From an uncultured cyanobacterium (GTDB lineage: Bacteria; Cyanobacteriota; Cyanobacteriia; Cyanobacteriales; Nostocaceae): a stretch of DNA of 64,000 bases. Below the pieces are notes generated by a model. The model was given only the letters and a program-made list of their open reading frames with translations, was not told the origin of the DNA and ran no database searches. Below, piece after piece: positions 5,516 to 14,851 of this stretch (its first letter is position 1; every line of letters begins with the position of its first letter). A program made the position numbers and the translations under genes. Location of the stretch: positions 3,584,001-3,648,000 of the forward strand of contig OY970166.1 in assembly GCA_963706595.1 (NCBI GenBank), read 5' to 3'.

Positions 5516-8500
5516 CTACTGACAAATTCCCCTCTCATCCTCACTCAAATTCGAGTTGTGCTGCAAATAATCATCCAACCAAGCGCAACCCCGCACCAGC
5601 AATTCATCTAAACTCTCCACAGGCCACAACCGCGCTGTCCGGTCATCGGATGCGGTGGCGATGGTTTTGCCGTCCGGGCTGAAACTCACACTATTGATTT
5701 CGCCTTGATGCCCTTTGAATTCTTGTAACAGTTGCCCGTTTAGAGTCCACAACCGCGCTGTCCGGTCAGAGGATGCGGTGGCGATGGTTTTGCCGTCCGG
5801 GCTGAAACTCACACTATAGACTATGCCCTGATGCCCTTTGAATTCTTGTAACAGTTGCCCGTCTAGAGTCCACAACCGCGCTGTCCGGTCAGAGGATGCG
5901 GTGGCGATGGTTTTGCCGTCCGGGCTGAAACTCACACTCCAGACCCAACCCTGATGCCCTTTGAATTCTTGTAACAGTTGCCCGTCTAGAGTCCACAACC
6001 ACGCTGTCTGGTCAGAGGATGCGGTGGCGATGGTTTTGCCGTCCGGGCTGAAACTCACACTAATGATTTCGCCCTGATGCCCTTTGAATTCTTGTAACAG
6101 TTGCCCGTCTAGAGTCCACAACCGCGCTGTCTGGTCAGAGGATGCGGTGGCGATGGTTTTGCCGTCCGGGCTGAAACTCACACTCCAGACCCAGCCCTGA
6201 TGCCCTTTGAATTCTTGTAACAGTTGCCCGTCTAGAGTCCACAACCGCGCTGTCTGGTCAGAGGATGCGGTGGCGATGGTTTTGCCGTCCGGGCTGAAAC
6301 TCACACTCCAGACCCAGCCCTGATGCCCTTTGAATTCTTGTAACAGTTGCCCGTCTAGAGTCCACAACCGCGCTGTCTGGTCAAAGGATGCGGTGGCGAT
6401 GGTTTTGCCGTCCGGGCTGAAACTCACACTATTGATTTCGCCTTGATGCCCTTTGAATTCTTGTAACAGTTGCCCGTTTAGAGTCCACAACCGCGCTGTC
6501 CGGTCAGAGGATGCGGTGGCGATGGTTTTGCCGTCCGGGCTGAAACTCACACTATTGATTTCGCCTTGATGCCCTTTGAATTCTTGTAACAGTTGCCCGT
6601 TTAGAGTCCACAACCGCGCTGTCCGGTCAGAGGATGCGGTGGCGATGGTTTTGCCGTCCGGGCTGAAACTCACACTATTGATTTCGCCTTGATGCCCTTT
6701 GAATTCTTGTAACAGTTGCCCGTTTAGAGTCCACAACCGCGCTGTCCGGTCAGAGGATGCGGTGGCGATGGTTTTGCCGTCCGGGCTGAAACTCACACTA
6801 ATGATTTCGCCCTGATGCCCTTTCAATTCTTGTAACAGTTGCCCGTCTAGAGTCCACAACCGCGCTGTCCCGTCAGAGGATGCGGTGGCGATGGTTTTGC
6901 CGTCCGGGCTGAAACTCACACTAATGATTTCGCCCTGATGCCCTTTCAATTCTTGTAACAGTTGCCCGTCTAGAGTCCACAACCGCGCTGTCCGGTCATC
7001 GGATGCGGTGGCGATGGTTTTGCCGTCCGGGCTGAAACTCACACTCCTGACTATGCCCTGATGCCCTTTGAATTCTTGTAACATTTGCCCGTCTAGAGTC
7101 CACAACCGCGCTGTCCCGTCAGAGGATGCGGTGGCGATGGTTTTGCCGTCCGGGCTGAAACTCACACTCCTGACTATGCCCTGATGCCCTTTGAATTCTT
7201 GTAACAGTTGCCCGTTTAGAGTCCACAACCGCGCTGTCCCGTCAGAGGATGCGGTGGCGATGGTTTTGCCGTCCGGGCTGAAACTCACACTAAAGACCCT
7301 GCCCTGATGCCCATGAAATTGGTTACGTTCTTTAATATCACTCAGAATAGTATGCAACGCATAAATCGGGCTAATAGCTGGGTATTCATCCAGAGGGCGA
7401 TTATCTTTAACTAAAGTTTTCAACTCTTTACCAGTTTTGACTGCTGTTACTAGCCCTTCTAATGGGGTAAATTCAAACTGTCTAATCGCATTAACTCCCG
7501 CCCGTTCTAATTCTGTTCCCTTTTGCGCTTCTTGTTGGGCTGCTTGCGCTAATTGTGCAGCTTGCTTTGCTGTTTGTTGGGCTTCTTGCGCCTGTTTCAG
7601 AGTAATTTCTGCCTGTGCAACTTGAGACTCCGCTTGCTGTTGTTGTTGCTGTGCTTGTTGCGCTTTCTCATCAGCCGTTCTCACTCTCTCCGTAGCCGTT
7701 TTAATTCTGGCTTCCGCTTCGGCATTTTTCTTTTCTAATGCTGCGGCTTGCTGATTTACCTTCTCTAAGTCTGTTTTAGCAGCAGCTAGGTTTTGGGTAG
7801 CTTTGATATTTTCTTTTTGTGCGTCCTTAAACTTTGCTTCTGCGTCCTTACTTTTAATTTCTAAATCTCGCGCTGTTCTTTGTAATTCTGCCTGTTTTCT
7901 TTCCGTCTCTTGCAAATTTTGAGTTGTTCGCCGATAATCACCTTCAGTTTTGGTTAATTTTCGTTCTGCTTGTTGTTGATTTTCATTAGCTTTACTGGCT
8001 GTACCAACTTGAATCACTGCATAAACAGAAGCCATCCCTGAAACTATTAATAAAAACACTGATAAACGAGAACTTATCTTAAACCGTTTCTGCCCTTCCC
8101 TAATCTTTGCTTCAGCTTCCTGGTTAGCAGCAGCTAATATTTTCTTAGCTTCTTGTTCCTGTTTTAACTGCTCTTCAGCTAGAGCTAATTTAGCTAATAA
8201 TTCATTATCCTGTTGTTGTCGCACAAAAGAAACCAAATAATCATGCACCAACTGATACCTATCAGCCGGGGATTCTGGTAATAGCAACACCAAACCAGAT
8301 TGCACAAAAATATCTAATATCAAATCTAATCTATCAGTTTCTGCTGCTAACTTTGCTGTCAACTCAGCCCTAGTTTTCAAAGGACGAGTGCCATTTTCAT
8401 CTGTGAGTAAATATAAAATCAATCTCGCAGCGCGTTCATTTTCTGCCCCACAATCTTTAATAACCGATTCTAAAAATCCTTCAACCAGATTTTCTTTAGT

Positions 8501-10798
8501 CCCAAAATCTTGATACTGTTTTAAAGTTGTAATTTTCTCAGTTTGCAACTGCATCCCCACAAGTTGCAACTCAATTGGGCGTACCTCCCCAATCTTCCCC
8601 GCTAAATCCTGCACTAATTGGTCAATTAAAGCAGCTTCTAAAGAAGATTGATTTCTAGTTTCCTCTGCAATCACACCTTCTAAACCAACGCTACCACTTA
8701 AAGCAGAGTTCAAAGCCTCTCTCCTCGTAGGAGAGAGGTTTGGAGAGAGGTTTTGTCGAGTCAAAGTTTCAATAACAGTCGTAGCATCTTCCGGTGAAAA
8801 ATTACCCAAATAATAGCGAATATTTTTAGCCAGAATATTATTATTAATTACCCCTAAATCAAACAGCCGTTCTAACTCTAATAAATAATGTAAATAATCT
8901 TCTCGTAAAGACAGAATCACCTTCACAAAAGGAATATCTAAACAAATATGTAGGAACTCATAAAAACTGCGCCTATCACCTTGGTCTGGATAAACAAAGA
9001 AAAACTCTTCAAATTGGTCAAAAATTAACACCGTTAACAGATTGCGGTCAGCATTTTTTCGCAACTCTGCCACAATAGCATCTGGAGAATTGAGAGAACT
9101 AGCATTTAACGACTGAATATTTGATTTCAAACACTGTCCCAACATTTCCACCCAATTTGTGTAAACTCGCAACAAAATAGGTAGAACATCACGTCCCTCA
9201 ATTGGTTTTTGTTGCAATGCAGGTATTAAACCACCTTGTAAAATTGAACTTTTACCCACACCTGACTGACCATGAATTACAGTCAATTTATGCTCAGTCC
9301 CGCTAATTCTTTCCCGCAATCGCTTCACATCTTGACTCCGACCAGAAGCGGCTATTTCTTGAGCTACACTATCTGTATTTTCTATTTGTAACTGTGCCGG
9401 ATTTATAGCTTGTTTCTGGGGATTTAAATAAGATGCACCCACAAAAGCCCGAAATCCATATTGATGTTCAATTTGTAATTGTTCTTGCTTGAGATTAAAA
9501 GCTAAACGATATTCATTTTTGTTAAAGTAGAGTAAACGTAATCTTTCTAAAATCAAGATATATAATTGCGGATCATATTGCGGATTACTTGCAGTTTTGG
9601 CAATTTCTAAATGCTCAATTGCGGCTGTAACTTCACCTAAACCCTGATCAGCACAAGCTAAAATAAATTGATATAAACTAAGTTCATAAGGTGCTAAACT
9701 AGAGATATCATTTAATATTTGCAGTGCATTATTCGCCAATTTCCTCGCATCTTGCCAGCGTGACTCTTGTAGCGCTACCTCTGCCAAAAAGCCATGATCT
9801 TGTGCTAATTGTCGGAGAGTGCCATATTCTTCATGTAGTGGCAGAGCTTTTTCAGCTAGGCTTTGTAAATCTGACCATGCTGTTAAATGTCGCAGCGCTT
9901 CACCCAAATGATTAATATATTTAGCGCTTAAATCTAGACGCTGTATTTCCTCAAAAATTTCTAAAGCATCTTGCAGATAATTTCTCGCAGTTTCCCAAGA
10001 TATTTGATTATCTAAGGGATTAATTACAGCTTGCCGAGAATAGAGTAAACCAATATGAATTAAAACTATACCTTGGCGTTCTTTGAAATCATTTATTGTT
10101 CGCCATCTAGTCAAACTTTGCTGATAATGTACTAAAGCCAAATCAAGTTTATCATAAAGATAATCATGAAATCCCAAGACAAATTCCAGACTAGCGGTAA
10201 TAGCAAAATTTAAAACTTCCCTACGCTGTTTTAAATCCTGATGAGCAGATTTTAATTCCTGGCAAATTTGCAGAGTGGGACGCACATCACCAGTAAATAC
10301 TTCACCAGTTGTTTGGCGTAATAAATTAAATAACTCAGGGGTAGGAGTTTCAAACTCAATAATACTAGCCCAATTTTCCAAATCTGCGGCTAACCGAATC
10401 AACTTTTGCAGAGTTTGGTCATTCACCCACAACAAAATAGGGAAAGGAAATTGTTTACTAAATTGCTCCCGCACTCGGTTAGCCGCAGTCAGAACCGTAT
10501 CAATATCTTTAACTGATTCCAACCCAAAAACCATTAAAGCTGGTGGTTGTTCATCTCCCAGTTGTTCTTTAATAGCCGTGTAAAGAGTTTTCACAGATGC
10601 AGGTAAAGTAATTTCGCGAATTTGTACAGGAGATAATTGGTGCAGTCGTTCAACCATACGCTGACGCAAAACCGCATAATTACAGCGCAATAAAATCAGT
10701 GAAAATTCACCTTCAGATAAGGTAATTGCTCTCACCAAACTTTGCAATGATTGCTGATTATCAACTTCTAAATTTTCCGGTTCATGCTGATTACTCAT
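5516..10798 (-). CDS. Large STAND-class NTPase: degenerate P-loop N-terminus, TPRs, STAND ATPase, TM helix, coiled coil, 14 WD40 repeats
   Basis: Walker A HGQSGVGKSS, Walker B LIFDQFEEFF, LSLREDY, YQLVHDYL; hydrophobic LSVFLLIVSGMASVYAVI; 14 x GHQG...SFSPDG...ATAS.D.TARLW. Confidence 0.93.
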   Translation of the reverse strand: MSNQHEPENLEVDNQQSLQSLVRAITLSEGEFSLILLRCNYAVLRQRMVERLHQLSPVQIREITLPASVKTLYTAIKEQLGDEQPPALMVFGLESVKDIDTVLTAANRVREQFSKQFPFPILLWVNDQTLQKLIRLAADLENWASIIEFETPTPELFNLLRQTTGEVFTGDVRPTLQICQELKSAHQDLKQRREVLNFAITASLEFVLGFHDYLYDKLDLALVHYQQSLTRWRTINDFKERQGIVLIHIGLLYSRQAVINPLDNQISWETARNYLQDALEIFEEIQRLDLSAKYINHLGEALRHLTAWSDLQSLAEKALPLHEEYGTLRQLAQDHGFLAEVALQESRWQDARKLANNALQILNDISSLAPYELSLYQFILACADQGLGEVTAAIEHLEIAKTASNPQYDPQLYILILERLRLLYFNKNEYRLAFNLKQEQLQIEHQYGFRAFVGASYLNPQKQAINPAQLQIENTDSVAQEIAASGRSQDVKRLRERISGTEHKLTVIHGQSGVGKSSILQGGLIPALQQKPIEGRDVLPILLRVYTNWVEMLGQCLKSNIQSLNASSLNSPDAIVAELRKNADRNLLTVLIFDQFEEFFFVYPDQGDRRSFYEFLHICLDIPFVKVILSLREDYLHYLLELERLFDLGVINNNILAKNIRYYLGNFSPEDATTVIETLTRQNLSPNLSPTRREALNSALSGSVGLEGVIAEETRNQSSLEAALIDQLVQDLAGKIGEVRPIELQLVGMQLQTEKITTLKQYQDFGTKENLVEGFLESVIKDCGAENERAARLILYLLTDENGTRPLKTRAELTAKLAAETDRLDLILDIFVQSGLVLLLPESPADRYQLVHDYLVSFVRQQQDNELLAKLALAEEQLKQEQEAKKILAAANQEAEAKIREGQKRFKISSRLSVFLLIVSGMASVYAVIQVGTASKANENQQQAERKLTKTEGDYRRTTQNLQETERKQAELQRTARDLEIKSKDAEAKFKDAQKENIKATQNLAAAKTDLEKVNQQAAALEKKNAEAEARIKTATERVRTADEKAQQAQQQQQQAESQVAQAEITLKQAQEAQQTAKQAAQLAQAAQQEAQKGTELERAGVNAIRQFEFTPLEGLVTAVKTGKELKTLVKDNRPLDEYPAISPIYALHTILSDIKERNQFHGHQGRVFSVSFSPDGKTIATASSDGTARLWTLNGQLLQEFKGHQGIVRSVSFSPDGKTIATASSDGTARLWTLDGQMLQEFKGHQGIVRSVSFSPDGKTIATASDDRTARLWTLDGQLLQELKGHQGEIISVSFSPDGKTIATASSDGTARLWTLDGQLLQELKGHQGEIISVSFSPDGKTIATASSDRTARLWTLNGQLLQEFKGHQGEINSVSFSPDGKTIATASSDRTARLWTLNGQLLQEFKGHQGEINSVSFSPDGKTIATASSDRTARLWTLNGQLLQEFKGHQGEINSVSFSPDGKTIATASFDQTARLWTLDGQLLQEFKGHQGWVWSVSFSPDGKTIATASSDQTARLWTLDGQLLQEFKGHQGWVWSVSFSPDGKTIATASSDQTARLWTLDGQLLQEFKGHQGEIISVSFSPDGKTIATASSDQTAWLWTLDGQLLQEFKGHQGWVWSVSFSPDGKTIATASSDRTARLWTLDGQLLQEFKGHQGIVYSVSFSPDGKTIATASSDRTARLWTLNGQLLQEFKGHQGEINSVSFSPDGKTIATASDDRTARLWPVESLDELLVRGCAWLDDYLQHNSNLSEDERGICQ
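5620..7318 (-). repeat. Array of 14 near-identical 123-bp WD40-coding repeats
   Basis: 41-aa period; DNA is nearly invariant apart from a few codon positions. Confidence 0.97.
8716..8750. repeat. Palindromic dispersed repeat inside the STAND-WD40 gene
   Basis: CCTCTCTCCT-CGT-AGGAGAGAGG hairpin followed by TTTGGAGAGAGG, translated as NLSPNLSPTRREA. Confidence 0.7.
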
Positions 10799-10823
10799 AT
10801 AGCAATCCTATTTGAATGGTATT

Positions 10824-10856
10824 AGATCCCCGACTTCTTTGAGAAGTCGGGGATCT
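10824..10856. repeat. Perfect 15-bp-arm palindrome (REP-like) between the ATPase and STAND-WD40 genes
   Basis: AGATCCCCGACTTCT-TTG-AGAAGTCGGGGATCT. Confidence 0.85.
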
Positions 10857-10872
10857 GGGTCACGCGACTACT

Positions 10873-12174
10873 CTAACTCTCCTCGTTTGCTGCCAAAATC
10901 GGATTGATATCAAACCAGGAACCTTCCTCATTACGATATTCAAATACAAACATACTGCGGAGCAAAAGTTCGTATTTCTCATCACCTCTAAAGCTTTTGC
11001 GTTCAGTCACCTCACTGAGTAATTCCCACTCATCTTCAGTAATAGCCAAACTTAGCTCATTACACCTTTGTTTTATCACTTTTTCCACGCACTCACGGGA
11101 CAAAGGTGGGTCTTCTCTCTGCACACAGCGAAATAATAACATCAACAAGTTACGCAGATGACCACCGCTAACTCGGCACAGTCGCTCTAAACTATCAGCC
11201 TCCTCAAATACCTCTGTAATTAAATGCTGGCTTTGTTCCCAACTCACTTCAGGAAATGCTCTAGCCATGACCATCTGTTGCAGTAGTGTAATTCCTGGGA
11301 GAAAATCACCCCCATGACGGAACTTAACCGGAACCATTGGCAAAACTTTCGGGTCTACCCCAAACCGATTTGTTAACCTTCCTAAAGCGTTGGAAAAAAT
11401 TAATACTAGGGGAATTGTGTAGACAACATGACAATTTAACTGGTTTAGCTGTTCGCCACGTTCCACAAACAGATATTCTGGCTGGTAATAGGAACCCCCT
11501 GGTTTCATAGAATTATCTATGCGGTCAAGGTTATCAACTATCACCACCAGTCCTTCTTTACCTTGCTGCTTCAGTCGTTCTATGGCAGGTTTGAGCAATT
11601 CTTGGTTAATTGATTCTAAAATGCCGTTAGTGCGCGGTTCTAAATATTGCCGTAATTGCGATCGCAGTTTTGGACTATCTTTAGTTTTAGCTGTAATCTT
11701 GCCAATACCCACAGATAACTCGGCTTCTACGCCAATATCTAACGGTGTTTGTAAAAAATCGACAATTTCCTTAAATAAAGTTTGAAAATATCCCGGTTTG
11801 AGGTTAATTGTAATTGCTTCCAGACTTAGACTGACTTCTCTAGCTATAGCCAATAAAATATCTGTAATATCCACATCTGCCATATCCAGGCTATGGCTAG
11901 ATTCAAAGTAAACTACATGAAACCCCTGCTTTTCTAATTCTTTTTTCAGTCGCAGCAGTTCAGTAGACTTACCACAACCAATATGTCCTGTAAATAATTG
12001 ACAGGTAGGTTCATCAGGAGAGAGACGGGTAATAGTCCGCCCTAGTTCTTCAATAATCTTGGCACCACGTACTTCAGAAAAATCAATATAATACTGTAGG
12101 TCTTCAGGTTTGCTGACTACCAGTGTTTTGGCAGGGTTGCACGCCTTAAAAAATTTACTTACATTCAGTTTCAT
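10873..12174 (-). CDS. P-loop ATPase (KAP/STAND-like), partner of the downstream STAND-WD40 gene
   Basis: Walker A GHIGCGKS, Walker B VVIVDNLD, SGGHLR; stop codon 74 bp before the start of the WD40 gene, same strand. Confidence 0.9.
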   Translation of the reverse strand: MKLNVSKFFKACNPAKTLVVSKPEDLQYYIDFSEVRGAKIIEELGRTITRLSPDEPTCQLFTGHIGCGKSTELLRLKKELEKQGFHVVYFESSHSLDMADVDITDILLAIAREVSLSLEAITINLKPGYFQTLFKEIVDFLQTPLDIGVEAELSVGIGKITAKTKDSPKLRSQLRQYLEPRTNGILESINQELLKPAIERLKQQGKEGLVVIVDNLDRIDNSMKPGGSYYQPEYLFVERGEQLNQLNCHVVYTIPLVLIFSNALGRLTNRFGVDPKVLPMVPVKFRHGGDFLPGITLLQQMVMARAFPEVSWEQSQHLITEVFEEADSLERLCRVSGGHLRNLLMLLFRCVQREDPPLSRECVEKVIKQRCNELSLAITEDEWELLSEVTERKSFRGDEKYELLLRSMFVFEYRNEEGSWFDINPILAANEES

Positions 12175-12252: not shown

Positions 12253-13122
12253 ATGACCAAACCCGCAGATGTTAGCACCAAAAAGTTAATTAGCCTCGCA
12301 CCCGACAACTGGGTAAAATGGGTGACACAAATTCCTGATGTCACAGCAACCGAAATACTAAATTCAGAATTTCAATGGATAAGTAGAGAAAGTGATGTTT
12401 TAATTCGCGTTGCCAGTCCTCAAGTTGGAGAATTTCTCGTTCTCAATGAATTACAATTACGCTATCAGCCACAAATGCCTCGTCGAATGCGTGCTTATGT
12501 CGGACTTGCAGAAGAAAAATATAATTTACCGATCTACCCCGTATTAATTAATATTCTCAAAGTCAGTAACGCGCAAATACCATCAACGTACACATCAAAT
12601 ATTGCAGGGTTGCAAGCACGCCAAGATTACCGCGTGATTAATTTATGGGAAGTAGATGTAAATATTGCTTTTCAACAACCATTACCGTCATTACTGCCAT
12701 TTGTTCCTATACTCAAAGGCGGTGAAAACGAATCTACAATTAGAGAAGCATTACAAGTTTTGCGTGCAGATGAGCAATTAAACCAACTGGAAACAGTGTT
12801 AGCTTTTTTTGCAACCTTTGTACTAGACAGCGCCTTAGTTCAAGAAATCATGAGGTGGGATATGGCTGTATTACACGAATCGCCTTGGTATCAAGAAATT
12901 TTACGCGAGGGTGAAAAACGCGGCGAGAAACGGGGTGAAGAACGCGGCGAGGGACGTGGATTGAAAAATGGTATTGAGTTAGCGTTAGAGATTAAATTTG
13001 GCACTCCTGGCTTGGAATTAATGCCAATTATCTCGCAAATCCATGATTTACAACAATTAAAGGCAGTTCAACAGGCGATCAAAACGTCAAATACAGTTGA
13101 GGAATTAAAACAAGTTTTTTGA
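12253..13122 (+). CDS. Rpn family recombination-promoting nuclease / putative transposase
   Basis: RESDVL...ELQ PD-(D/E)xK-like core, MPRRMRAY, ESPWYQEI followed by (GEKR)n repeats. Confidence 0.85.
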   Translation: MTKPADVSTKKLISLAPDNWVKWVTQIPDVTATEILNSEFQWISRESDVLIRVASPQVGEFLVLNELQLRYQPQMPRRMRAYVGLAEEKYNLPIYPVLINILKVSNAQIPSTYTSNIAGLQARQDYRVINLWEVDVNIAFQQPLPSLLPFVPILKGGENESTIREALQVLRADEQLNQLETVLAFFATFVLDSALVQEIMRWDMAVLHESPWYQEILREGEKRGEKRGEERGEGRGLKNGIELALEIKFGTPGLELMPIISQIHDLQQLKAVQQAIKTSNTVEELKQVF

Positions 13123-13258: not shown

Positions 13259-14851
13259 CTATCCATTACCCACATCTTTCTTAACATGACTGTAAGCTAG
13301 ACTGTGTAGGGATGATAGAAGTTTCTAAGTCAGCGCGATCGCCTGTGGAGAGGGTTTGCCGATGTTTAAGCAGAAACATCAAGTGGAGAAGCGGGATGGA
13401 GAAGTTTCCAGGTAGCGGCGATATCGTGTAATCGCCGTAGACCCCGCCAAATAGTTTTAACTCCCGGCTCACCATCTCCATTGCGAGCCAGAAAGCCGCC
13501 GAGAGTGGCAATCATTCGCACGGCTTCTCGTAAAGACGGAGGTTTTTTTGGTGGTATGGGATTCTTGTTGACAGTGGCACATAAAGATTGCCATTCATCA
13601 GTTTCTAAAACGGTATTAGAGGGTAAATCAGGGTGAACTCGTGAGGAGTAAGTTAGCCATAACAAACGCCAAGCGACAACAGTATAAGTGGCTAGTGCCA
13701 TATTGATGCGGTCAGCAGTGGACAATTGTAATTGCTCAATTCTACACCCACTTTTTAAAGTGTAATGATAGCGTTCTATCAACCAACGATAAGTGTACCA
13801 TTGCACACAACGTGCGGCATCCTGTAAGTTATGAATCTCAAGGCTGGTGAGCAATAACCAACTAATAGGATTGATTCCGGGTGGTGAATGATCTTCTGAT
13901 GCCAGAATTACTTGTAACTTTACAGGTTTTAGCTGTGAACGCCCGATATGATGTGATGGGACTTGGATATCAACACTAGTGAATCGAATTGTGAGTATCG
14001 CTTTTCTAGCACTATGTTCTGGACTACGTTTGACCTCTGCTGTCAGTGTTCCATGGGGTTCAATTTGGCGGATTGCTTGATGTAAATACTTGGCACAGTG
14101 GTCAACTTTGCGGTTGTGAGTCCCACGGATTAACAAATGGGAATTTTCTGAACGTTTGAGATTAAATAGGTCAAATATATCTGCTTCTGAGTCCCCTATT
14201 GTCACTACTTGAATCTCTGATGGGACAGAATTTTGTGTCACATCTAATCCATCTAACCAGCGCTGACTTTCTTTTAAAAGTGTTTCCCTTTGACGACGTT
14301 TTTTCGCTATGCCCAAATTTTCGGGTGGTCTAGCCCATACCTGCTGTTCCAGAATTCCTAACGGCACTCCATTACTTGTAGCTGCAAATGTTGAATGTAC
14401 TTTCAATCCTGATGATTGACGATGGTCAAGATAACCCACTCCTTTCGTTTTGGGGTGGTCTGTTAAATCTATGTTGGTTGTGTCTTGAATCGCTAAGACT
14501 ATTTGATGTTCTTTGATTCTTTCGATTGTGCTGTCTATATGCCCTTGACGAATTTCACTGGCGGGAAAATATGGTGATTTCCAAAAGTTATATACTGCTT
14601 TGGTTGCTGCCATATTTCCACTTGCTTGTGGTACGCTACAATCTGGCTGTGCGGCTAAGTCCTCTACTATCTTGATTAACCGCTTGTTTCGACGAACGTC
14701 TCCTAGGTCTACCCCAGACAGTTCCTTGGCTGCCCACTTTTCCATGATTCCATTACCCGATTCTGTTCTCTCCACACTATACTTAGCAAGCTTTTTCCGC
14801 TTATGTTAAGTATCTTGTTTGATTGTTAAGAAAGATGCGGGTAATGGATAG
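13259..14851 (-). mobile_element. Complete IS4-family (IS50/Tn5-like) insertion sequence, 1593 bp
   Basis: 28-bp TIRs CTATCCATTACCC(A/G)CATCTTTCTTAACA with 1 mismatch; 9-bp target duplication TTACTAAGG at 13250-13258 and 14852-14860. Confidence 0.96.
13366..14775 (-). CDS. IS4-family DDE transposase
   Basis: WA..EL..DLGD.RR.KRL N-terminus, IQDTT, GDSEAD, YREK motif YRWLIERYHYTLKSG, LGGFL.R..DGEPG..TIWRG dimerisation tail. Confidence 0.96.
   Translation of the reverse strand: MERTESGNGIMEKWAAKELSGVDLGDVRRNKRLIKIVEDLAAQPDCSVPQASGNMAATKAVYNFWKSPYFPASEIRQGHIDSTIERIKEHQIVLAIQDTTNIDLTDHPKTKGVGYLDHRQSSGLKVHSTFAATSNGVPLGILEQQVWARPPENLGIAKKRRQRETLLKESQRWLDGLDVTQNSVPSEIQVVTIGDSEADIFDLFNLKRSENSHLLIRGTHNRKVDHCAKYLHQAIRQIEPHGTLTAEVKRSPEHSARKAILTIRFTSVDIQVPSHHIGRSQLKPVKLQVILASEDHSPPGINPISWLLLTSLEIHNLQDAARCVQWYTYRWLIERYHYTLKSGCRIEQLQLSTADRINMALATYTVVAWRLLWLTYSSRVHPDLPSNTVLETDEWQSLCATVNKNPIPPKKPPSLREAVRMIATLGGFLARNGDGEPGVKTIWRGLRRLHDIAATWKLLHPASPLDVSA

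Follow-up and report, generated by a model that had tools for sequence, protein, structure and literature searches.

In a window of 64,000 nucleotides from an uncultured cyanobacterium of the Nostocaceae (GenBank assembly GCA_963706595.1, contig OY970166.1, positions 3,584,001 to 3,648,000; plain coordinates below are those of this window), two adjacent genes on the minus strand encode a stand-alone AAA+ ATPase and a receptor that joins an inactive AAA+ domain to TPR-like helices, an nSTAND1 NTPase, a predicted membrane helix, a coiled coil and 14 WD40 repeats. With a probability of roughly 0.5, the module is read here as a strain-variable sensor of non-self, in which a ligand bound by outward-facing propellers would lead to oligomerisation, and the inactive domain would then switch the partner ATPase. 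The parts of this reading carry different weight: a conserved two-gene switch with an inactive AAA+ coupling domain is well supported, the receptor probably spans a membrane, and, of the readings considered, an immune or non-self role is the preferred one, with a chance of about one half.

A conserved pair of genes

The open reading frames (ORFs) of the ATPase and the receptor are separated by 74 bp. The preliminary description of this DNA had placed an ATPase with intact Walker motifs directly upstream of a protein with a degenerate P-loop-like N-terminus, TPR-like helices, an intact STAND ATPase, one membrane helix, a long coiled coil and 14 WD40 repeats, and each of these elements was recovered in the analysis:

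10873-12174, minus strand: AAA+ ATPase gene, 433 amino acids (ORF list)
11962-11988, 11524-11547 and 11152-11169, minus strand: Walker A, Walker B and GGHxR motifs of the ATPase, in that order (motif reading)
5516-10798, minus strand: receptor gene, 1760 amino acids, comprising the inactive AAA+ core, TPR, nSTAND1, membrane helix, coiled coil, 14 WD40 repeats and two-Cys tail
10343-10798, minus strand: inactive AAA+ alpha/beta core, residues 1-152 (AF2 model, fold search, alignment)
9419-10213, minus strand: TPR-like helical region, residues 196-460 (TPR_12, 32.8 bits against a cut-off of 30.1; TPR_MalT, E 9e-4)
8159-9388, minus strand: nSTAND1 NTPase with helical and winged-helix region, residues 471-880 (PF20703, E 3e-32)
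8000-8071, minus strand: predicted single membrane helix, residues 910-933 (hydropathy; basic residues before it)
7469-7999, minus strand: predicted coiled-coil stalk, residues 934-1110 (inferred from composition and weak TolA/PspA-like matches)
5603-7324, minus strand: 14 WD40 repeats at an exact 123-bp spacing, forming two predicted seven-blade propellers
5519-5602, minus strand: C-terminal cap with Cys 1738 and Cys 1759, the sole cysteines after the helix (sequence)

The pairing extends well beyond the window. In a first set of 80 loci, drawn from both ends of a list of 131 ATPase matches, the ATPase gene is followed by a gene for the inactive domain in 75, the five misses including one broken ATPase and one contig end. 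The pair was also found in 66 of the 74 testable loci of a second set of 80, and in 72 of 75 testable loci of a distant set of 80 that includes Acidobacteria, Chloroflexota, Gammaproteobacteria, Planctomycetota, Myxococcota, a spirochaete and Methanothrix; the three sets share few loci, and kin among them are not independent. Many of the paired genes overlap by 4-50 bp. The pairwise distances of the partners are correlated (Spearman 0.84, permutation maximum 0.21), which is taken as a sign of co-inheritance only. The conserved linkage that the preliminary description had proposed to check is thus present. The family is not confined to filamentous cyanobacteria; it also occurs in other phyla, in Acaryochloris plasmids and in one Microcystis record, the latter two genera being presumably unicellular.

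In the phylum sample, 71 of 251 genomes have a match; these include 31 of the 32 genomes of the own family, and one large family has none among its 107. The partners outside cyanobacteria are nearly all an inactive domain with TPRs, and the nSTAND1-WD40 extension is found only in records titled cyanobacteria or unclassified. The genome of the window itself holds three ATPase matches, two of which belong to pairs with an inactive-domain-TPR protein (C1:175971-178881 and C1:4843998-4846822); in these the stop and start codons overlap and the 42-residue TPR units are near-identical. The partner tails encountered comprise TPR, nSTAND1-WD40, CHASE2, kinase, one Uma2 and one NACHT.

Among the rarer arrangements, the locus L084:2899-11211 encodes the ATPase, a fusion of inactive domain and ATPase, and then the receptor, and L061:1223-9023 encodes a STAND-TPR-ATPase fusion, the ATPase and a receptor with two inactive domains. 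The Uma2 tail, a putative endonuclease placed after TPRs, is found at L229:7301-9709, and a planctomycete NNH1-NACHT tail at L241:7343-10153. One clade of orphan ATPases (L134, L153, L174 and L180, mostly Microcoleus-type records) has no inactive-domain gene downstream, and a shikimate-dehydrogenase-like gene (by ORF reading) follows in at least three of them. In the genome of the window, C1:743057-751952 encodes two tandem proteins with a caspase-like N-terminus (by reading), a STAND region matching the receptor and WD40 tails, with no partner ATPase of this family.

The inactive AAA+ domain of the receptor

No Pfam family reaches its cut-off on receptor residues 1-200 (best E 0.042). The AF2 model of this domain (predicted local distance difference test, pLDDT, 93) shows helices alternating with five strands and lacks a lid. 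The 50 matches listed by VIA are all AAA+ or STAND-type ATPase chains, the best being TnsC (Z 10.8, root-mean-square deviation 3.0 over 129 residues), with Z values that are moderate and indicate a fold class, not a family; the Foldseek listing brings up clamp loaders, ORC and RuvB. A profile-profile comparison of the domain with its partner ATPase gave nothing (probability 0.6%).

The domain predicted as inactive in the preliminary description has no Walker A motif in any of 143 aligned homologues, and its Walker B is eroded to LMVFGLE. One residue, Arg110, is invariant (143 of 143; codon 10469-10471, minus strand), and Asp139 (99%), Asn107 (97%) and Trp143 (94%) are also conserved. This conservation supports Arg110 as a candidate contact.

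The stand-alone ATPase

The ATPase carries the motifs GHIGCGKST (Walker A), VVIVDNLD (Walker B) and SGGHLR (sensor-2-like). Its AF2 model (pLDDT 92) is matched by AAA+ chains across residues 3-433. In VIA these include TnsC (Z 15.4, root-mean-square deviation 4.0, 286 residues aligned), archaeal Orc1/Cdc6 (Z 14.9) and archaeal PAB2304 (Z 14.1, 307 residues aligned, reaching the C-terminus), and the top Foldseek ranks are ORC/Cdc6 chains. By this model, the protein is an intact AAA+ ATPase of Orc1/Cdc6-TnsC-MNS-like fold, with a helical insert, a lid and a C-terminal winged-helix-like region.

Walker A, the Walker B Asp, Arg305 and Arg341 of the GGHxR motif are invariant in 143 aligned homologues, and an Arg before strand 5 (Arg270) is present in 43% of the 143, so that no invariant Arg occupies that site. 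The ratio of nonsynonymous to synonymous substitution rates (dN/dS) against two congeners is 0.14, indicating purifying selection, and the closest named relative, from Nodularia spumigena, is 95% identical, which makes a Nodularia the probable host. The Pfam matches are confined to P-loop families, with no TIR or caspase partner domain; KAP NTPases (PF07693) score 26 bits against a cut-off of 20, covering only profile positions 3-165 of 293, and AAA_22 scores similarly. Across 70 members of the family PADLOC returned weak P-loop matches only, sequence searches against solved structures gave no real relative of either the ATPase or the receptor, and the ESM Atlas gave only cyanobacterial clusters without names.

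Variable codons in the WD40 repeats

The 12 internal WD40 units are 94% identical in DNA and differ silently at two codon positions only, and codons 9, 11, 27 and 29 of the repeat hold three, five, three and three residues, respectively. The 14 replacements at these four codons fall on 9.4 sites and are set against 3 silent changes, for which there are 28 sites; the ratio is 14, compared with 0.44 for the remaining repeat codons. The ratio is a minimal-change count over 11 units, one unit having been dropped by pattern, and its binomial p of 1e-6 is overstated, because the four codons were picked post hoc and gene conversion makes the units non-independent.

In the NWD genes of Podospora, the selected codons are 7, 9, 25 and 27, and the pairs flank conserved positions on the top face of the propeller (PMC1805685). 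The 2/18/2 spacing of the variable codons in the window equals that of these HET-E codons. Among 24 arrays, made up of hand-picked close orthologues, homogenised arrays and five controls, the 12 homogenised ones (at least 86% identical) gave a ratio above 1 in 11 cases, with p<0.01 in 6, and the other 12 were saturated or had a ratio near 1. Every homogenised array carries its own four-letter code. As judged from the repeat sequences, the evolutionary signature of the window copy is that of a diversifying recognition protein.

Clades, turnover and a possible developmental role

A tree of 150 ATPase sequences (FastTree, midpoint root), in which ftsQ/ftsZ neighbours were flagged by crude motifs, falls into three parts: a basal group with TPR-only partners, a clade of 61, and the clade of the window copy, which has 28 members (support 0.989). 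All 39 flagged loci belong to the clade of 61. No locus of the window clade is so flagged; its receptors include some with and some without the helix, and truncations are numerous, a part of them perhaps due to assembly collapse. Such collapse can produce low repeat counts in drafts (PMC12222747), so the low counts of draft genomes (G009 and many of the other loci) are not taken as real contractions.

At the site on the thrC side, the intact 14-repeat module is found in 1 of 11 congeneric genomes, that of the window, in a comparison in which G008 ends at a contig edge and the G007 site is left out. In G002 the receptor is cut after one repeat by a resolvase/TnpB-like pair (by ORF reading), the draft G009 has two repeats, G010 retains an ATPase stub of 163 residues, and in G006 a transposase is surrounded by pieces of the receptor gene. 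G003 has a lipoxygenase gene at the site (L281:662-2305), the site is empty in G004 (<60 bp), and G001 and G005 have rearranged intervals without the module. The window copy is accessory, and it has been lost or broken in most congeners. The dN/dS of the receptor is 0.2-0.58, against 0.02-0.06 for thrC and radC.

The module could alternatively be an envelope or developmental signalling receptor, acting in division, septum formation, filament differentiation or symbiosis, with the window copy as a dispensable paralogue of a core receptor linked to ftsQ/ftsZ. This explanation is possible, although rather unlikely. It accommodates the clade of 61, in which all 39 fts loci lie, the repeats nearly always number 14 and the code is similar in five genera or species, as well as the presence of the family in 31 of 32 own-family genomes, the lack of an effector and the replacement of the WD40 tail by signalling domains (CHASE2, Ser/Thr kinase). 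However, the window copy sits in the other clade (28 members; support 0.989), where fts flags are lacking, the repeats are homogenised and truncation is frequent, and none of the three ATPase matches in its genome is of the fts clade. A fixed ligand also fits badly with the replacement excess at four codons.

Predicted membrane topology and the intracellular alternative

The central NTPase of the receptor scores 113 bits with nSTAND1 (PF20703; cut-off 27.1) and keeps both Walker motifs, GQSGVGKS (9248-9271) and VLIFDQFEE (9005-9031); the NACHT profile remains at 22.8 bits, below its cut-off of 26.7, and there is no HET match on the receptor. A single hydrophobic segment (Kyte-Doolittle 2.04 at residue 914) is found in the protein, consisting of 24 uncharged residues behind a basic patch. 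It is followed by the predicted stalk, 177 residues rich in Ala, Gln, Glu and Lys and free of Pro.

The topology was assessed by hydropathy, a family survey and domain swaps. An uncharged hydrophobic stretch is present in 74 of 83 distinct receptors with at least six repeats, and the N-side of the helix is the more positive one in 54 of these 74. Among 120 listed homologues of the inactive domain, 10 carry CHASE2, three carry a Ser/Thr kinase and one has a TPR tail in place of the WD40 repeats. CHASE2, an extracellular sensor domain (PMC5587647), comes directly after a single helix in all three proteins scanned, and two hydrophobic segments precede the kinase in the kinase variant (one sequence, by eye). 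A receptor with its N-terminus inside and its C-terminus outside is expected to have a single helix ahead of an external domain and a pair of them ahead of a cytoplasmic enzyme, which is the arrangement seen here. The propellers are therefore likely to face outward, in the periplasm or the thylakoid lumen, and these swaps favour the earlier proposal that they lie across the membrane from the ATPase.

The receptor might instead work as an intracellular NLR, the hydrophobic segment touching the membrane or being buried, and the propellers reading cytoplasmic phage or self proteins in the manner of Apaf-1 or HET-E. Nine of the 83 receptors have no membrane helix, and several of these helix-less homologues, which keep 7-14 repeats, belong to the window clade; the family hydropathy is modest and the basal TPR-only partners have no helix. 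This alternative is nevertheless clearly unlikely, in view of the 24 uncharged residues behind a basic patch in the window copy and of sister proteins, about 75% identical over the first domain, that have CHASE2 at the corresponding place. Propeller cysteines point the same way, averaging 4.3 in helix-less receptors but mostly 0-2 in helix-bearing ones.

Proposed mechanism and its weak points

In the preferred reading as a non-self sensor, the receptor would have its N-terminus inside and hold its stalked propellers in the periplasm or the thylakoid lumen. Repeat recombination and diversifying selection would rewrite their binding surface, as in fungal HET-D/E, and STAND oligomerisation would cluster the inactive domains. 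Each inactive domain may then bind the ATPase through Arg110 and turn it on, by analogy with BrxB, which binds and stimulates BrxC. The ATPase would supply the output by acting on a target, for which the TnsC/ORC-like fold of the model suggests DNA. The ancestral form may have been the ATPase with an inactive-domain-TPR protein serving as a cytoplasmic sensor, to which cyanobacteria would have added the nSTAND1-helix-WD40 extension for sensing across a membrane.

Several observations weigh against this reading. The fts clade looks like a core function, because its repeats keep about 55% identity and a similar top-face code across genera. No toxin domain was found in the ATPase or the receptor, in agreement with the preliminary description, and PADLOC assigned no family beyond weak P-loop matches (PDC-S20, E 2.5e-5) and a WD40-driven HEAT-ARM_XIII match. 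The neighbours radC and thrC do not make a defence island. Matches number 0 among 50,697 phage records and 9 among 72,556 plasmids, and ATPases are orphans in 8 of 74 loci. The helix is missing from 9 of 83 receptors and is often only moderately hydrophobic in the family (1.2-1.8). The two-Cys tail was tried as a topology marker and rejected, being present in 71 of 74 helix-bearing and 8 of 9 helix-less receptors. Arg110 sits in the helix after the eroded Walker B, off the canonical arginine-finger site; the canonical finger position, assigned by analogy to position 144, has Arg in 54 of the 85 rows from the basal clade, almost all of which have TPR-only tails, but in none of the 58 from the clade with nSTAND, so a classical arginine finger acting in trans is unsupported for the window copy. 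Finally, highly repetitive WD40 proteins with variable hotspots are common in cyanobacteria, without proven function (PMC5587647, PMC9218822).

The interpretation offered in the preliminary description was consequently supported in part. The conserved linkage, inactive domain, helix, predicted topology, variable repeats and accessory character stand, and the interpretation is qualified by the helix-less receptors and by an fts-linked clade with a fixed code. For the window copy itself, the contrary outcomes it had named (no helix, no linkage, a housekeeping role with invariant repeats) were not what was found.

A further explanation is very unlikely, namely that the repeat pattern arose as a side effect of ongoing amplification of blades in a decaying accessory gene of little present use, the scaffold being constrained and the top-face codons drifting. 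Recent amplification and decay of propellers are indeed general (PMC9218822), most congeners have broken copies or none, and the receptor dN/dS (0.2-0.58) exceeds that of thrC and radC (0.02-0.06); drift, however, predicts a ratio near 1 rather than 14, multi-base codon swaps concentrate at the four positions, the ATPase is under purifying selection (0.14) and the receptor frame is intact over 5.3 kb. It is hardly credible that the inactive domain is an inhibitor, a guard or antitoxin restraining a harmful ATPase until the sensor fires: translational coupling is tight, many of the genes overlapping by 4-50 bp, loss or fragmentation of the receptor in G010 and G006 goes along with a truncated or missing ATPase, and BrxB competes with BrxC multimerisation (PMC13326643), but intact orphan ATPases are found in 8 of 74 loci, where a partner in trans is possible.

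Possible output and defence context

The locus L288:3858-9252 (G023:C57) is a complete ternary locus (EAD8-iSTAND/MoxR-type/vWA), and a homologue of the ATPase forms the end of its last gene, fused behind a 260-residue domain without a name. This 260-residue region is presumably vWA-L. In ternary conflict systems that slot is the effector position, behind a vWA-L linker (PMC8195603). Other ATPase fusions adjoin CHAT protease genes. An effector role of the ATPase is a lead, because it comes from one locus and a few fusions.

Comparison with known systems

The nearest published counterparts of the module are the WRAP (TIR-STAND) operons and the nSTAND2 pairs. WRAP operons were reportedly introduced by Dunin-Horkawicz, Kopec and Lupas in 2014. 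They consist of two STAND genes in cyanobacteria, one ending in a 14-blade propeller of recent amplification and the partner carrying TIR, and a role in immunity has been proposed for them (PMC9218822). The module resembles them in its two coupled P-loop ATPase genes, in a STAND protein ending in 14 recently amplified blades, in its rapid turnover and disruption, and in the innate immunity proposed for them. The WRAP partner, however, is a STAND protein carrying TIR and sometimes caspase, whereas the module partner is a bare Orc1/TnsC-like ATPase, and the module receptor has an additional inactive AAA+ domain, TPRs and a membrane helix.

No family named nSTAND2 is among the Pfam matches of the module proteins, in a library that presumably holds such a model, and no GT4 or HEPN domain is fused to the inactive NTPase of the window. 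The likeness to nSTAND2 systems lies in a mobile pair of active and inactive STAND-like NTPases, the inactive one fused to variable modules (Kaur et al. 2021, PMC8195603). These systems are described with arginine fingers in both proteins and GT4/HEPN effectors (PMC8195603), whereas the module ATPase has no invariant finger and its inactive domain is lid-less and fused to sensors (TPR, nSTAND1-WD40, CHASE2). A finger is not conserved in both module proteins, with Arg in 43% of 143 ATPases and in 54 of 143 inactive domains at position 144.

BrxB is a lid-less inactive STAND protein whose R82 makes contact with BrxC, increases the BrxC ATPase rate 2-6 fold and is required for restriction (PMC13326643; PMC12839542). 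The module shares with BrxB-BrxC a lid-less AAA+ core without Walker motifs, an ORC/Cdc6-clade ATPase and one conserved Arg as candidate contact; it differs in that the inactive domain is fused to a receptor and shows no beta-cap insert after strand 4 in the model. The BrxB profile (PF08747) has no match in the genome of the window (with a positive control in 2 of 14) or on the receptor, so the likeness is an analogy and not membership. BrxB is not among the matches listed in either fold search of the inactive domain, which is uninformative as an exclusion, and no PglX or PglZ gene lies beside the window module.

The repeats have a parallel in the fungal HNWD/NWD NLRs HET-D and HET-E, STAND proteins with highly homogenised WD40 repeats, four diversifying top-face codons at the same spacing and arrays of variable length (PMC1805685, PMC12222747). 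In the module, by contrast, the NTPase is nSTAND1 and not NACHT, a HET death domain is missing, a membrane helix with a stalk is predicted, and the ATPase is encoded by a gene of its own. Variable hotspots are also known in highly repetitive prokaryotic WD40 proteins (PMC5587647). The central NTPase is itself a member of the nSTAND1 conflict NTPases, which have C-terminal sensors, sometimes across a membrane (PMC8195603, PMC10907252), and STAND proteins with periplasmic sensors have been predicted (PMC10907252). The N-termini described for that group are EADs, TIR or peptidases, while the module has an inactive AAA+ domain with TPRs and its own ATPase gene. Avs/AVAST and the other catalogued defence systems gave no PADLOC family match, and no N-terminal effector was found. 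The pair of ATPase and inactive domain is not described in the accessible parts of PMC13581612, PMC7159879, PMC12222747 or PMC12691664, and literature searches (supplementary tables lying outside them) returned no paper on it.

Neighbouring genes and dispersed repeats

The flanking ORFs are radC, a 158-residue gene, an Rpn-like gene, an IS4 transposase and thrC. The remaining features are as follows:

12253-13122, plus strand: Rpn-like neighbour (TIGR01784, E 0.044, below cut-off)
13366-14775, minus strand: IS4-family transposase (NF033590, E 5e-129)
10824-10856, no strand: 33-bp palindromic dispersed repeat inside the 74-bp gap between the two genes (78 genome copies)
8708-8755, minus strand: dispersed-repeat insert, in frame within a loop of the nSTAND1 region (46-bp repeat)

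The preliminary description had remarked on an adjacent Rpn gene and an insertion sequence, of which the latter is clear; both add little. The Rpn-like gene has no Pfam match, is found in G009 and G006 and is missing in G002 and G010, and it is rejected as part of the module. The IS4 element is likewise rejected as a bystander, being missing from the site in G009. The palindrome is not module-specific; another copy lies just upstream of the paralogous ATPase near C1:178999. The 46-bp repeat has 24 genome matches of at least 35 bp, and at the same loop G002 and G009 have a different, longer insert and L034 has none.

The remark that the 5.3-kb receptor gene has no HIP1 site proved correct (0 against 4.1 expected, P 0.017). 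Its absence is rejected as evidence, because 19 of 112 ORFs of at least 1000 residues also have none and a single repeated unit makes up 1.7 kb of the gene. The scan for promoters and terminators gave no excess over shuffled sequence (9 against 14.1 and 6 against 8.2). The sequencing runs contained at most 0.20 of the words. Contigs from RNA libraries, mostly 90-95% alike and so derived from other strains, cover the ATPase gene and the initial 1.1 kb of the receptor gene, one of them bridging both genes, and are not used as evidence because they reveal neither strand nor a single transcript. In contigs of runs X15 and X17, from another strain, the match ends at 9640 with a loose end, which may represent a truncated receptor allele.

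Significance

The bacterial STAND receptors characterised so far detect phage proteins inside the cytoplasm, and they have or recruit an effector that is recognisable as toxic. The present family has neither feature, yet it is found in 31 of 32 sampled own-family genomes and in several other phyla. A more specific and tentative version of the non-self reading would make it a bacterial, trans-membrane form of HET-E-like allorecognition, in which a recombining WD40 code reads a touching filament, a phage or a predator in the periplasm, the BrxB-like inactive domain passes the signal to a TnsC/ORC-like ATPase as effector, and the same switch has been separately domesticated beside ftsQ/ftsZ for a fixed cellular ligand. 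The labile clade and the ftsQ/ftsZ-linked clade provide a natural comparison of immune and core uses of one switch. If the reading is true, the module would add an NLR-like route across the membrane and a novel type of output, a stand-alone ATPase gated by an inactive AAA+ domain, and it would bear on whether filamentous cyanobacteria separate self from non-self by a HET-E-like code.

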